Positions 10,368 through 41,993 of a DNA stretch of 64,000 nucleotides are shown one piece after another. The notes under the pieces were generated by a model, which saw only the letters and a program-made list of their open reading frames with translations, did not search any database and was not told where the DNA came from. Source of the stretch: Planctomycetota bacterium (GTDB taxonomy: Bacteria > Planctomycetota > JAJSAM01 > JAJVHW01); assembly GCA_965248445.1 (NCBI GenBank), contig CBDFJG010000001.1, forward strand, positions 320,001 through 384,000. Direction: 5' to 3'. The position numbers and the translations under genes are program-made. Every line of letters starts with the position of its first letter. Positions within the stretch are counted from its first letter, which is position 1.

Positions 10368-11462
10368 CTACCGCCTCGACGGACCGTGCGGGTCCGTGAC
10401 CGGTACCTCGCCCTCCCAGTCGACGCCCTTCTTGCGGCCTTCGCGGATGTGCTCGCGGGCGTCCTTCGTGCCGGGGGCGTGCGCCTTCATCGCTGCCGCG
10501 AGCGCCTTCTCGAGGGAGTCGGCGTCGGTCTTCGCGGTCTGGGCGAGCACCTTGCCCTCGAGTCCGAACGCATCCGGTTGCACGATCACGAGCGCTGCGT
10601 CCGCAGCAACTTCCGCGATCTTCTCCAGGTCCTTGCGTTTCGTGGTCTCCGCCCAGACGAGGCGGCCGATGAAGTCGTCGGCCCACGCGAGCGGACGCAG
10701 TTGCTTCTCGAGTGCCTCACGCGCCGCGTCCGTCTTGGCGACGACGATGGCCGTCGGCAGCATGTCGCACGCGGCGACGTTCAGACCGAGGCGCACGTCC
10801 TCGACGTACGGCATGGTCCCGGGGCCCGTCTTCCCCTTCTGCTTCTTCGCGTACCGCGCCGCGATGTCCGTCAACGTCGCAACCATCTTGGTGACGTCCT
10901 CGCCGCCGGGGCTGTCCGGCCGTCCCCGCCGAGGACGACCGTCCCCGAGCGCCATCTGCGGTGAGCGTCCGGCGCGCGTGAGCTTGGTCTCGCCGTCGGG
11001 GGCGAGGATCGAGAAGACGGTGTTCTCGAGCTGGCCGCTACGTCCGGTGAAGACCGTCGCGAGGAACTCGGCTTCGTCCTTGTCCTCGTACGTCGAGAGA
11101 CGCGCGCACACGAACTCGCGCGAGACCGCGACCACCTCGGGCTGGGACAGGAAACTCCTGTCCATGTTCTGCTTGCCGGGTCACCAGATCCCCGAGATGC
11201 CGTGGCACTGGGGTGCCGCGGACAGCAGGAAGATCGGCTTGCCCGTCCGCTCCGCCTCGGCCTTCGCGCCGTCCCACGTCCCGAACCACTGCACCAGCGT
11301 TCGCTCGGCAGCGGCCTCGCCGCTTCCGGCAACGGGGCCTTCGGGGCGAGGCGGGCCGCCTCTTTCGCCTCCCGGCGGGCCGCCGCGGTCCTGCGCAGAC
11401 GCGACGGACGTCGCGGCGGCGAGGCACATCACCAGGATCAAGCTGCTCTTCATGCGGGACAT
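10368..11462 (-). CDS. exported thioredoxin-like protein with in-frame TGA (putative selenoprotein, U94)
   Basis: ORFs 11181..11597 and 10368..11165 are in one frame separated only by TGA 11181-11183: KPIFLLSAAPQCHGISGIW-U-PGKQNMDRSFLSQPEVVAVSREFVCARL; signal peptide; RBS GGAGGAG; ends in TAG. Confidence 0.82.
11145..11163 (-). promoter_or_regulatory. putative bacterial SECIS element
   Basis: mRNA GGACAGGA-GUU-UCCUGUCC: perfect 8-bp stem, loop G 26 nt 3' of the UGA. Confidence 0.72.
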
Positions 11463-12763: not shown

Positions 12764-12964
12764 AGAAGCGGCTCACCGCGCGCTGCAGGCGATCCGACAT
12801 GAACTCGCGGTGAACAGAACTCGTCGCGACGTGCTCGCCCGTGTTCACGGTGTCGTAACTCGGCGTCTGCAAACTCCTCTTCCTCACGGCATTGCGGGGC
12901 ACGCGAGCGCATGGGGCGCGAGCGGAACCCGATCGGGCCGTGTGCAAGACGGATGGAGGCAGAC

Positions 12965-13705
12965 ATGCGCAAGATCAAGCGTATCGCGTTGGCTTTGCTG
13001 CTCGCCGGCGTTGTAGTGCCGTCGGGTACGGACGCGCTGGCGGGGAAGGAAGAGGTCGAACTCGCCGATGCGGCGGTGTTCATCGAGTGGAACTTCACGG
13101 ACACCGACTTCGGGATCCACTTCTTCTGGGACGGAGTGGGCTGGGAGAAGATGAAGGTCCGGGACGATCGGGGAAAGACCGTCCTGCAGGTGAAGACCTC
13201 CAAGAACGTGAAGGCGCAGAGCCTCACGGAGGCGATGTTCGAGAGCCGCGAGCCGCCGGCTTCCGAGCTCTCGATGGAGCAGTTCTTCGACCGCTTCCCA
13301 GAGGGCACGTACGCATTCAAGGGGAAGTCGTTCGACGGCAACAAGCTCGTAGGCGAAGCCGACTTCGCGCACACCTTGCCTGCGCCCACCACGATCACGT
13401 CGCCCACCGGCGGCAGCACGCAGTCCGCGGACGGTTTCACGTTCAGTTGGACCGAGGTGACGCAGGACATCGACGGCAACGACATCACGGTGGAGGGCTA
13501 CGTCGTCGTGATCGAATCGACGAGCGAGGACCCGGCAGTCGAACTCGAGCTGTTCGTCCCGTTCGGCACGAACTCACTCGACATCCCCGGTGAGTTCATC
13601 ACTCCGGACAACACCTACAAGGCCGAGGTGATCGTGATCGACGAGGAGAGCGGCAACCGGACGATTCGAGAGTCCGGGGAGTTCTCCACCGACTCCGGAT
13701 CGTAG
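12965..13705 (+). CDS. exported hypothetical protein
   Basis: RBS GGAGG; signal MRKIKRIALALLLAGVVVPSGTDALA; acidic beta-rich mature part (IEWNFTDTDFGIHFFWDG). Confidence 0.78.
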   Translation: MRKIKRIALALLLAGVVVPSGTDALAGKEEVELADAAVFIEWNFTDTDFGIHFFWDGVGWEKMKVRDDRGKTVLQVKTSKNVKAQSLTEAMFESREPPASELSMEQFFDRFPEGTYAFKGKSFDGNKLVGEADFAHTLPAPTTITSPTGGSTQSADGFTFSWTEVTQDIDGNDITVEGYVVVIESTSEDPAVELELFVPFGTNSLDIPGEFITPDNTYKAEVIVIDEESGNRTIRESGEFSTDSGS

Positions 13706-13767: not shown

Positions 13768-14718
13768 CTAACGGCCGAGTTTGCGCCGCAGGTCGTTCGT
13801 CAGACGCACGGCGTCGTCGTAGTGATCGCCGATGCGCAGGCTGGATCGCGAGACGACCAGCGCGCGGTCGAGGGCGCCCTTGAGGTCCTTCTTCTTCGCC
13901 AGATCGCGCGCTTCCTGGAGCGCCTTCTCCTGGCGTTCGAGCCGTTCCTCGACTCGCCCCCAGTACGGCTTGAAGTGCTTCTTCACGCTGCTCTCGAGGA
14001 ACTTTGCGATGTCGCGCGAGCGCCGCATCGGCGGCGCACTCTCCACGACGTGTAGACCGGCGTCGACCACGACCATGCGCGGCCCGGTCGCGTCACCGAA
14101 GTGGCGCAGGAGGGCGGGATCGCTCTTGTCGATCTCGACGCGCACCAGCCGGTAAAGGCGCGCCCAGCGGGCGACGATCTCGTCGTCGATCGCGAGGCAC
14201 TGCTTCTCTTGCTTCTTGAGCACGGCGGCGGGGGTCGTCGGGGCGGCCTCGTCTCCGTAGTGCGACACGTGCAGGTGCACGAGCGTCGGACGCGTCTCCG
14301 CCTTGCGGATCCGCAGCAGCGACCGCACGCGGGACTCGATGTCGTCGGTACCGTCCGCGTCGGGCGGCTTCGTTCCCTCGTCGCCCCCGGTCACTGCCTT
14401 GGGCTGGGTCAGGTAGATGCTGCGCCAGCGCGTCTTGGTTCGATCGGTGTCACCGCCGGTCGTGGCGGGACTGCCGTATCCGCCGCCGGTCGTCGTAATG
14501 CCGCCGCCGGGCTTGTCGTCCCCGCCACCGGTCACGGGTCCCGCCGGCCGGCCGGGCTGTTCCTTCTCCGTCTCGGGACCGTTGGTGCCCGGAAGCGTCT
14601 CTCCAACTGGGGCCGTCACGACGACCGAGCCGTGACCGGGTCAGGTCGGCGGCAGGACCCCGAAGATCGACATCGCGGCGACGAGCACAGGCAGCGAAAA
14701 GGCGTGCAGCGTGAGCAT
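13768..14718 (-). CDS. exported protein with in-frame TGA at codon 26 (candidate selenoprotein), G/P/T-rich linker and degenerate thioredoxin-like domain
   Basis: RBS GGGGAGA, then ATG 14718: MLTLHAFSLPVLVAAMSIFGVLPPT-TGA(14641-14643)-PGHGSVVVTAPVG..., in frame with ORF 13768..14619; ends in TAG. Confidence 0.6.
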
Positions 14719-14819
14719 TGCTTCTCCCCCGGTAGCGGCGTCGGCTGCACTCGCGCGCGCAGCCATGCCGACGACGCCGATGATAGACGCGATCGGCGAG
14801 TCCGGCACGGGGCGGCCTC

Positions 14820-15446
14820 TCAGTCGGGCTTCCGGGCCAGTACGAGCGTGTGGCCCACGTCGCCCTCGGGCACGAACCGGGTCCACTCGACGCGGAACCC
14901 AGCCTCCTCGATCCAGCGGACGTTCGTCGCTTCGTCGGCGTGGCTCCACGCCATCAACCCCTCTTCGACGTCGAGGTACTGCTCGTCTGTACCGGTCCAC
15001 TCCTCGTGACCGACGATCGCCAGGAAGACGCCGCCCGGCCGCAGCCAGCGCGCGACGTCGCGATAGAGCGGCGCGTGCGCCGCGAGTGGCATGTGGATGA
15101 TCGCGTAGAACGACACGACCGCGTCGAATGCCGCCGCAGGCAGGTCGAGCCCCACGACGTCGGCGCAGACAAGCCGTGCATCCGGCACCAACTTGCGCGC
15201 GCGTTCGATCTGCACACTCGAGAAGTCGACGCCGGTGACGTCGTATCGCCGCGCCAAGAGCCTGGTCGCCGGCAGCCCGCAGCCGCACCCGAGATCGAGG
15301 ACTGGCGACCCCTCCGGAACGCGCTCTGCGAGCATGTCGATCCACTCGGCGTACTGCTCGTAGTCGTCGGGAGTCTCATCGGACCGGTACACGAACGAGA
15401 GCCGGTCGTAGCCGCGACGGACGATCTCACTCTGGTTCTTGATCAC
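14820..15446 (-). CDS. class I SAM-dependent methyltransferase
   Basis: VLDLGCGCG, VTGVDFS, FDAVVSFYAIIH, LRPGG; GTG start overlaps the upstream TGA. Confidence 0.9.
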   Translation of the reverse strand: MIKNQSEIVRRGYDRLSFVYRSDETPDDYEQYAEWIDMLAERVPEGSPVLDLGCGCGLPATRLLARRYDVTGVDFSSVQIERARKLVPDARLVCADVVGLDLPAAAFDAVVSFYAIIHMPLAAHAPLYRDVARWLRPGGVFLAIVGHEEWTGTDEQYLDVEEGLMAWSHADEATNVRWIEEAGFRVEWTRFVPEGDVGHTLVLARKPD

Positions 15447-15850
15447 GGCGGCGGAATCTTCCAGGTCTCGTGCACGTGCCGCCACAGGAAGCCGCCCGGA
15501 GCAGCATCGTCGCGCGTAAGCAGGACCGTGGAGATGCGCGCGGTCGTGTACTCGGCGTGGTCATGCCACTCCTCGTAGGTGGCAACCACCGCGTCGCCCT
15601 CGTTCCAGGCGACGCCCGGGTTTTCGATTCGAATGCGAATCGAGCGAGCGCCGTGACCCTCGCGAATGTTCGAGAGCTTCTGCGACCGCGAGACAAGGTC
15701 ACCCCGCGGCGAGATGAAGGTGAAGCCCGCTCCGATCGAGGCTTCGATGCGTCCGAGGTCGTCCGACTCGCCGCGAAGCCAGCGCTCGAACTCGACGTGG
15801 AGCGCCGCGATCTCGGCGGCTACAGCAGACGACAGGTCCGGGTCGGTCAT
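15443..15850 (-). CDS. DUF4440/SnoaL-like protein
   Basis: EIAALH.EFERW, FTFISPRG, ATYEEW, W.HVHETW. Confidence 0.78.
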   Translation of the reverse strand: MTDPDLSSAVAAEIAALHVEFERWLRGESDDLGRIEASIGAGFTFISPRGDLVSRSQKLSNIREGHGARSIRIRIENPGVAWNEGDAVVATYEEWHDHAEYTTARISTVLLTRDDAAPGGFLWRHVHETWKIPPP

Positions 15851-41423: not shown

Positions 41424-41993
41424 CTAGTCCGGCGGATGCGGGTGCGCGGCGCGGACCTCGTCCGGCCAGAAGTCCTCGAGGTCGATGCCGAGGCCATCGA
41501 CGGTGCGGTTGCACCACGCGAAGAACCCGCTGATCTGATTGACCCCGACGATGCCCTCGTCGGAGAAGCCGACCGCGCGCAGCGCTTCGACGTCGGCGCG
41601 ACGCATGGCGCCCGGCGTCCGGGTGAGTTTGATGACGTGGTCGATGAGAGCGCGCAGCCGGGGCGTCGTCTCGACGGTCGTCGGATCCGCCTTCAGTCCT
41701 TCCACGTAGTCAGCGTCGTTGCAGTGACCTAACAGGCCCCGCGCGTGGTGGACCACTCAGTAGTAGCAGTCGTTCACATGGCTGACGGTGACGGCGATCG
41801 TCTCCCGCTCGATCATCGTCAGATCGAGCGGCCCGTGCATCACGCCCTTGTAGAAGGTCAGCAGCGCATCGAGCGCGCACGGCACCAGCGAGTGCGCCTG
41901 CACGACGTTGTCGGGCCGGCCGGGCAACCCTGCGTAGAGCGCCGCCAATTCGCCCGTGGCCTGTTCGGGGCCGATGAGGGGAACCCACGCCAT
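41424..41993 (-). CDS. AhpD/carboxymuconolactone-decarboxylase-family peroxidase, selenoprotein (CxxU, U79)
   Basis: ERETIAVTVSHVNDCYY-TGA(41757-41759)-VVHH in frame; KLTRTP, LRAVGFSD, FAW.NR.VDGLG; ends in TAG. Confidence 0.9.
41721..41742 (-). promoter_or_regulatory. putative bacterial SECIS element
   Basis: mRNA GCGG-GGCCU-GUU-AGGUC-A-CUGC hairpin; loop G 24 nt after the UGA; spans the rare codon TTA. Confidence 0.68.

Follow-up and report, generated by a model that had tools for sequence, protein, structure and literature searches.

Thioredoxin-fold selenoproteins of bacteria are represented in Table 1 of PMC13188914, an inventory of 119 selenoprotein families, by Trx UxxC proteins, Prx-like and DsbA/DsbG-like proteins and the Trx7/PDZ family NF041199. 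As far as that table describes them, selenocysteine (Sec) lies mostly in the active-site motif. The legend of Fig. 2 of the same paper models the bacterial Sec insertion element (bSECIS) as a G-loop hairpin 16-37 nt behind the UGA. Other described proteins carry Sec at a terminus. Mammalian thioredoxin reductase has a flexible C-terminal Gly-Cys-Sec-Gly arm (PMC10452626), and SaoC (NF040734), which has a signal peptide, and KCU-star (NF033934) have vicinal Cys/Sec residues at the protein end. The YbbN/CnoX chaperedoxins, in which a thioredoxin domain is followed by TPR-like helices, are also relevant; E. coli YbbN is described as using a Cys outside the canonical motif and CnoX as working with GroEL/ES.

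The gene described here is likely an odd, single-Sec member of a family of exported selenoproteins of Planctomycetota that is absent from the catalogues compared. With the bacterial thioredoxin-fold selenoproteins, as outlined in PMC13188914, the family shares the fold, the in-frame UGA, a candidate coding-region hairpin and, as proposed, the SelB pathway; it differs from them in that the CxxC site has been lost and the predicted Sec lies outside it, on a tethered N-terminal arm. Similar to the thioredoxin reductase tail as summarized in the source cited above, Sec is usually next to a Cys, flanked by Gly and at a flexible, exposed terminus, and G-U-C-G, the commonest motif of the family, is the mirror image of that tail. 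However, the family arm is N-terminal and behind a signal peptide, there is neither a flavin/NADPH domain nor homology, and this paralog is without the neighbouring Cys; the comparison therefore concerns only how the two may work. The vicinal motif of SaoC and KCU-star is C-terminal, whereas that of the family, for which no NCBIfam match was obtained, is N-terminal. A thioredoxin domain followed by TPR-like helices is also predicted here, as in YbbN, but the TM-score to YbbN is only 0.32 (rmsd 9.8), no profile match was found and the helical tail is short; CnoX is reported to associate with GroEL/ES, whereas the present protein carries a leader and a proposed Sec arm. The closest fold is that of the periplasmic DsbD-gamma/Thioredoxin_7 domains, from which this protein differs by the absence of CxxC, by long insertions and by the lack of a membrane domain.

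The gene is encoded on the reverse strand of the 64,000-nt stretch of Planctomycetota DNA that was analysed (the window). A Shine-Dalgarno-like GGGGGAG (14724..14730) is located 5 nt before the ATG at 14718, and GGAG-type sites also precede the leaders of homologs. The ATG opens a hydrophobic leader of 25 residues (14644..14718), a predicted signal peptide or membrane anchor, which is followed by an in-frame TGA at codon 26 (14641..14643), the likely Sec codon. From there the frame continues without interruption through 290 open codons to a TAG stop (13768..13770), such that the arrangement of ribosome binding site, start, leader, TGA, open frame and stop given in the original prediction was seen in full. 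Behind the TGA, residues 27-87 (14458..14640) form a Gly/Pro/Thr-rich linker predicted by AlphaFold2 to be disordered, residues of about 93-252 (13963..14442) a thioredoxin-fold domain without CxxC, and residues 253-316 (13771..13962) a C-terminal TPR-like helical tail indicated by the structure model and by profile and structure matches. A sigma-70-like promoter was looked for and none was found.

Several trivial explanations for the TGA were considered. Between 10300 and 15200, no difference was found from the contigs of four sequencing runs, all made on a single sample that may itself be where this genome comes from; a base-call error was therefore rejected and an assembly error is unlikely, though this agreement is not independent support. 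TGA is the commonest true stop of the genome and ends 1297 of 2086 long coding ORFs, which argues for the standard code rather than code 4 or 25 and rules out a reading of TGA as Trp or Gly. Initiation at the downstream GTG (14619) was rejected, as no start backed by a Shine-Dalgarno sequence lies within 150 codons and homologs retain the leader. The TGA-CCC-GG context is indeed shared with the gene at 10368-11462, as the original prediction had pointed out, but is not a feature of the family; it is outside the eight commonest 5-mers after family TGAs and occurs at 5 of the 1297 true stops, and was not retained as a signal. No homology between the two genes was detectable (best E 0.49). The gene at 10368-11462, also on the reverse strand, encodes an exported Thioredoxin_7-like protein with the sequence C-H-G-I-S-G-I-W-U-P-G and a GTT-loop hairpin at +26, and matches the Trx7/PDZ selenoprotein NF041199 weakly (E 0.005).

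When the 5' ends of homologs were inspected, the leader was found to be kept, and TGA or Cys was found at the codon in question, as would be expected if the proposed recoding were real. With a profile made from the domain only, 12 of the 17 genomes in the class were found to contain the gene, 15 copies in all, and 13 of these copies carry TGA just behind the signal peptide; a metagenome scan by domain motifs identified 15 loci, three of which end before the N-terminus, with TGA at the same place in all 12 that have a readable one. Since these homologs were collected by their domains and share the placement (13/15 and 12/12), it is beyond chance. A full-length profile, which includes the leader and the motif and is thus biased towards TGA in its weakest matches, placed the family in 37 of 401 Planctomycetota genomes. 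Record titles and source names also put the family in Planctomycetota. Single-protein searches gave one match in one case and none in another. A pattern scan of genome contigs yielded 116 matches, only nine of them with a leader and a long frame (eight of these nine are Planctomycetota or Planctomycetia by title), and is circular with respect to TGA and not counted as support.

Altogether 59 genes were tabulated. Not counted were L189, which nearly duplicates L169, the first gene of L214, frameshifted at the motif, three loci truncated at the end of a contig, and further loci representing a gene already included. TGA just behind the signal peptide, with homology on either side of the codon, was found in 56 of the 59, and in all 53 members with a complete start the UGA is at codon 24-35. 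The motifs of the 56 are U-C (26 genes), C-U (11), U-x-U (8), U-U (2), a lone U (4), U with a Cys five residues away (3), U-x-x-U (1) and, in L204 as counted from its true start, C-T-U-P-C (1), so that 52 have a second Cys or Sec within five residues of Sec, in either order. The presumed reactive residue of the family switches among U-C, C-U, U-U, U-x-U, U and C, and the U-P-G emphasized in the original prediction is not the family motif. A lone Sec was also found in L205, L210 and L211, and T-U-P in L204. Of the three tabulated genes without Sec, L005 has Cys, encoded by TGC, at codon 26, whereas the motif is absent altogether from L015 and from the second L201 gene; in addition, P0036 has Cys at the Sec position. 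The frameshifted L214 gene (L214:1195-1975) is a tandem paralog with G-D-C-G-G-G, whose frame shift falls where its neighbour has the Sec codon, and represents either a pseudogene or an assembly slip. A more distant relative, L037:1021-1878 (G005), encodes an exported tandem thioredoxin with V-U-S-P-C in domain one and no CxxC in domain two.

No recurring partner gene was found within about 1.5 kb of family members, and a conserved operon was rejected because synteny exists at the lineage level only. In the window, the gene has a class I methyltransferase upstream (14820-15485, reverse strand; PF13649, E 6e-20), and on the forward strand an exported protein for which Pfam gave no match is encoded convergently (12911-13705); neither recurs beside homologs.

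The genome encodes SelA, SelB, SelD and tRNA-Sec, and its SelD itself carries a TGA. SelA was found in 36 of the 37 family-bearing genomes as compared to 290 of 401 in the Planctomycetota sample, a comparison in which related genomes are not independent. With SelA in 290 of 401 genomes, Sec use appears to be widespread in the phylum. A genome-wide search also yielded 140 read-through candidates, among them 36 TGA sites in UxxC/T/S/U or CxxU context, many in thioredoxin-like motifs, which points to a large candidate selenoproteome; 17 of these 36 pass the SECIS rule described below. One further candidate selenoprotein is encoded in the window at 41427-41993 (reverse strand); its motif is C-Y-Y-U, and a GTT loop is located at +24.

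Substrates of signal peptidase I have a charged n-region, a hydrophobic core and an A-x-A cleavage site. Most family members have all three features, whereas this copy has the hydrophobic core only. Its leader has no Lys or Arg in the first seven residues (Lys and Arg are absent from 5 of 57 family leaders), its best 11-residue hydropathy is 2.5, and P-P-T-U is found instead of an A-x-A ahead of Sec. That Sec would be placed right after the signal peptide in this particular copy is therefore argued from its homologs. Bacterial lipoboxes conform to [LVI][ASTVI][GAS]C; no lipobox was seen by eye, given P-P-T-U here and leaders ending in A-x-A or A-x-G in most members, and a lipoprotein reading was set aside. 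For the family as a whole, an exported protein whose mature N-terminus carries Sec on a flexible tether is a conserved, predicted design, and the unusual architecture first proposed for this gene can be upheld at that level.

In the AlphaFold2 model (55 sequences, pTM 0.74), the N-terminal 62 residues are disordered and precede a thioredoxin fold, which is followed by three helices at the C-terminus; pLDDT is below 50 over mature residues 1-36 and 38-62, the region of the linker. The best structural match was DsbD-gamma (1vrs_D; Z 11.2, rmsd 2.4, 112 residues aligned), followed by 3f9u_B (Z 10.7), with ordinary thioredoxins tied with DsbD-gamma within 1 Z unit. Foldseek returned nothing at E 0.001 and ranked YbbN first (3qou and 3qdn; E 1.4e-3 and 2.3e-3), and profile searches gave weak matches to TPR proteins and disulphide isomerases. 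In the ESM Atlas, the nearest clusters were unnamed (0.97-0.94), followed by Thioredoxin_7/2 below 0.9; the Atlas matches serve as leads only. The model and the structural matches agree on a thioredoxin-like domain, as the original prediction had it. No member scored above the Pfam cut-off among 19 (PF13899 matched 2 of 18 weakly) or above the curated cut-off of NCBIfam release 20 among 18. Among 55 aligned members, His150 is conserved in 39, His153 in 37, Cys174 (14197..14199) in 43 and Pro213, at the thioredoxin cis-Pro position, in 52. Cys174 is the sole cysteine of this protein, a second Cys on the next strand being found in 45 of the 55 members and absent here. Of the 55 members, 12 are without an equivalent of Cys174, and 2 are without both domain cysteines although Sec is kept in them. 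Distant members likewise keep the Sec motif and lose the His pair. As the domain has no CxxC and Sec is on the N-terminal arm, the UxxC/CxxU placement of thioredoxin-type selenoproteins does not apply. The distance from Sec to the first conserved strand is 72 residues here and 14-92 across the family. AlphaFold2 did not predict docking of the arm in this protein, nor was the G-U-C terminus placed in another member whose linker is very short (residues 1-3, pLDDT below 50).

Hairpins behind the TGA were assessed with the Fig. 2 model of PMC13188914, as given there, applied in our own code in a lenient and a strict version. The lenient rule was passed by 62 of 66 family TGAs, 195 of 400 true stops and 63 of 110 linker windows, and the strict rule by 57 of 66, 47 of 400 and 32 of 110, respectively. 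When pairing of the first 9 nt was forbidden, the same fixed rule was passed by 39 of 55 family genes as compared to 106 of 1297 true TGA stops and 158 of 1300 Cys codons; among synonymous recodings the share was about 30%. Judged by folding energy alone, just 9 of 54 family genes were in the top tenth of their own recodings. Stems of at least 5 bp are centred at i+j = 40, 41, 46 and 47 in 10, 13, 8 and 8 of 54 genes, where 1.7, 3.0, 3.2 and 1.0 would be expected. These centres peak for loops starting at +19 and +22, and G-C, C-G and A-U pairs are exchanged at the same stem places across the family.

In this gene, the 8-bp stem GTCACGGC/GTCGTGAC (14615..14636; +5 to +26 after the TGA, loop UCGGUC at +13) is the unconstrained minimum free energy fold. 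The original prediction was correct that this stem follows the TGA directly, but it does not lie at the family SECIS position and is not unusually stable. Its loop is inside the published minimum spacing and its centre, 31, corresponds to no clear family peak (5 observed, 2.7 expected), and it was rejected as the SECIS. The best SECIS candidate is an overlapping 6-bp hairpin (14611..14626; +15 to +30) with the loop CGUG at +21 and a G at +22, centred at 45, one nucleotide off the family peaks. The ribosome keeps the bases just behind the codon unpaired, and this hairpin is predicted to win once at least 5 nt after the UGA are held single-stranded. When the peptide was recoded synonymously 3000 times, 2623 recodings folded as well as or better than the first stem and 2734 as well as or better than the second, so that 87-91% match or exceed these hairpins. 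The gene passes the SECIS rule only through the +21 hairpin; 1142 of 3000 recodings (38%) pass the same rule, which puts the signal of this copy at chance level. The +15 to +30 hairpin thus fits the SECIS position better than the first stem and is no stronger than chance. CGUG or GUG loops at +19 to +27 are common behind other candidate Sec codons of this genome.

The genome contains three paralogs, namely this gene (T-U-P), C4:680511-681350 (G-U-C-P) and C3:1483134-1484078 (S-C-G). The Cys paralog at C3:1483134-1484078 is 41% identical to this gene, and Cys is found at the same codon 26 in an in-genome paralog (TGC in paralog L005). In a quick tree of 58 rows, made without L189 and the truncated L163 and without bootstrap, this gene groups with the Cys paralog and L015 (SH-aLRT 99), and the three are nested in a G-U-C clade (96). 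Since its two sisters in this nested clade have Cys only and neither residue, respectively, this gene appears to be a derived copy in a branch with a loosened motif. With a lone T-U-P, no A-x-A and sisters with Cys or nothing, this copy is a weak, atypical single-Sec member, and the original prediction was right to rank it below the other two candidates of the window.

TGA or Cys across the family, a full Sec machinery and an intact frame make it likely that codon 26 of this copy is decoded as Sec. Alternatively, the family could consist of true selenoproteins while this paralog is a recent pseudogene, in which TGC changed to TGA and the product ends after 25 residues. TGC and TGA are one base apart, the sister genes are without Sec, the SECIS signal of this copy is at chance level and its function could be covered by the two other paralogs. 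There is also precedent in this genome: the signal peptide of a conserved exported gene at L216:686-2065 (G000:C3:1285185-1286564, reverse strand) is interrupted by a TGA, a codon that none of its orthologs shows there; they encode Arg, Ala, Pro or Ser instead. Contigs of three of the four runs cover this site without a difference, and its TGA is either a nonsense change or neutral read-through, such that TGAs other than Sec codons do occur at leader junctions. A nonsense codon could however arise from a single base change by 79 routes in this gene, of which codon 26 is one, and a chance change is disfavoured because it would have to strike the family Sec position. The second motif position, moreover, is TGA in the 11 C-U and 2 U-U genes, and the members with a lone Sec or T-U-P listed above show that the motif of this copy is not unique. 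The downstream frame retains His150, His153, Cys174, Arg184 and Pro213, and its coding score of 0.20 per codon, against 0.19 and 0.26 in the two paralogs, gives no sign of decay. A genome scan for a Shine-Dalgarno sequence, leader, stop and long coding frame, which misses some cases, found nine TGA, among them that of C3:1285185-1286564, and no TAG or TAA; the overall in-frame stops (31 TGA, 31 TAG and 8 TAA) are swamped by adjacent in-frame genes and no nonsense rate can be derived from them. Taken with these observations, a pseudogene seems rather improbable.

If Sec is decoded, what it does in the protein is a separate question. In 52 of 56 genes, Sec is paired with a Cys or a second Sec; together with a Gly-rich tether and a thioredoxin domain without CxxC, this suggests a swinging redox arm, a function that, by analogy and given decoding, is favoured with some reservation. 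The undocked arm in the models, the members that keep Sec without domain cysteines and the lack of a recurring neighbour speak against it. The main rival, though an unlikely one, is that Sec together with the free amine, a neighbouring Cys and His150, His153 and Cys174 binds a soft metal or metalloid (Cu, Hg or As) without shuttling electrons. Such a role would fit the retention of the two His and Cys174 in most members, C-U and C-C mark predicted metal sites in the SaoB/SaoX/SaoL system (10.1101/2022.07.06.499078), and GxUC/CU motifs occur in the CopZ-like and MbdU families of Table 1 of PMC13188914. It sits less well with the distant members that have lost the His pair and kept the Sec motif, with the near-universal thioredoxin cis-Pro position and with the neighbourhoods of the family, in which genes for metal transport or resistance do not recur. 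The pseudogene reading ranks after metal binding, and so does the possibility that the early UGA serves mainly as a selenium-dependent expression gate, the residue itself being nearly neutral in this paralog. A UGA so close to the start, where failed read-through costs little, and members that work with Cys or with neither residue would be compatible with a gate; the early position, however, follows simply from placement just behind the signal peptide, and the neighbouring Cys/Sec and the exchange of Sec and Cys point to chemistry, which leaves a gate quite improbable.

A protein decoded with Sec, exported and equipped with a tethered, swinging redox arm is thus the reading preferred here, and the account as a whole is given a probability of roughly one half. 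In this account, SelB would read a hairpin behind the UGA, here probably that at +15 to +30, formed when the ribosome melts the nearer stem. The leader is predicted to direct export, after which Sec would be the first residue of the mature protein or only a few positions from it, on a predicted disordered linker of roughly 60 residues. In most members, the U-C, C-U, U-U or U-x-U pair may cycle between selenolthiol and selenenylsulfide, and the arm may hand electrons on to a partner that is bound by the thioredoxin and TPR-like part of the protein, whose own CxxC has been lost. As Sec is alone in this paralog, Cys174 would be its only possible intramolecular partner, in a U26-C174 selenenylsulfide.

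No matching entry was found in Table 1 of PMC13188914, and neither Planctomycetes nor the terms signal peptide, periplasm, secreted and N-terminus turned up in the accessible text of that paper. The portion of PMC4807772 that was available covers other selenoproteins and not this family, no account of the family was met in the part of BSepDB (PMC13326102) consulted for comparison, and a literature search that covered few subscription papers gave no description of it. Among the best 55 database matches, only four have a real leader and all four are Sec-free; the others start downstream or are fragments. The databases therefore seem to hide the family, as gene callers start entries past the TGA or leave fragments.

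In two further exported proteins of this genome, both found by the leader and stop scan described above, a TGA lies behind the leader. At L217:630-1283 (G000:C4:1662829-1663482, forward strand), a second exported family has Sec behind the leader in S-S-A-G-U-G-P-P-F-A-C; TGA is present in 11 of 11 genomes matched (A-G-U-G-x-P-F), and 8 of the 11 have a loop with GG at +19. This family gave no NCBIfam match and a weak match to the profile of the first family (E 0.003 among five sequences). At L215:698-3046 (G000:C2:723197-725545, forward strand), an unrelated exported protein of 782 residues has TGA directly behind A-F-A, with Cys in 3 of 3 homologs. It is tempting to speculate that several exported proteins of Planctomycetota (this family, the G-U-G-P-P-F-A-C family and the 782-residue protein) share a portable N-terminal Sec arm that cleavage by signal peptidase exposes, as a bacterial, extracytoplasmic mirror of the animal thioredoxin reductase tail, with U-C, U-only and C-only versions in one genome and, for the U-only copy, a SECIS that cannot fold until a competing stem has been melted by the ribosome; this broader proposal is tentative and, taken whole, doubtful.

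The value of this copy is that of a transitional member, and the claim for the family is independent of it. The presence of U-C, U and C paralogs in one genome makes the benefit of Sec over Cys directly testable on a single scaffold. If the proposed account is true, the family would represent an uncatalogued route for extracytoplasmic redox or metal chemistry in uncultured Planctomycetota.
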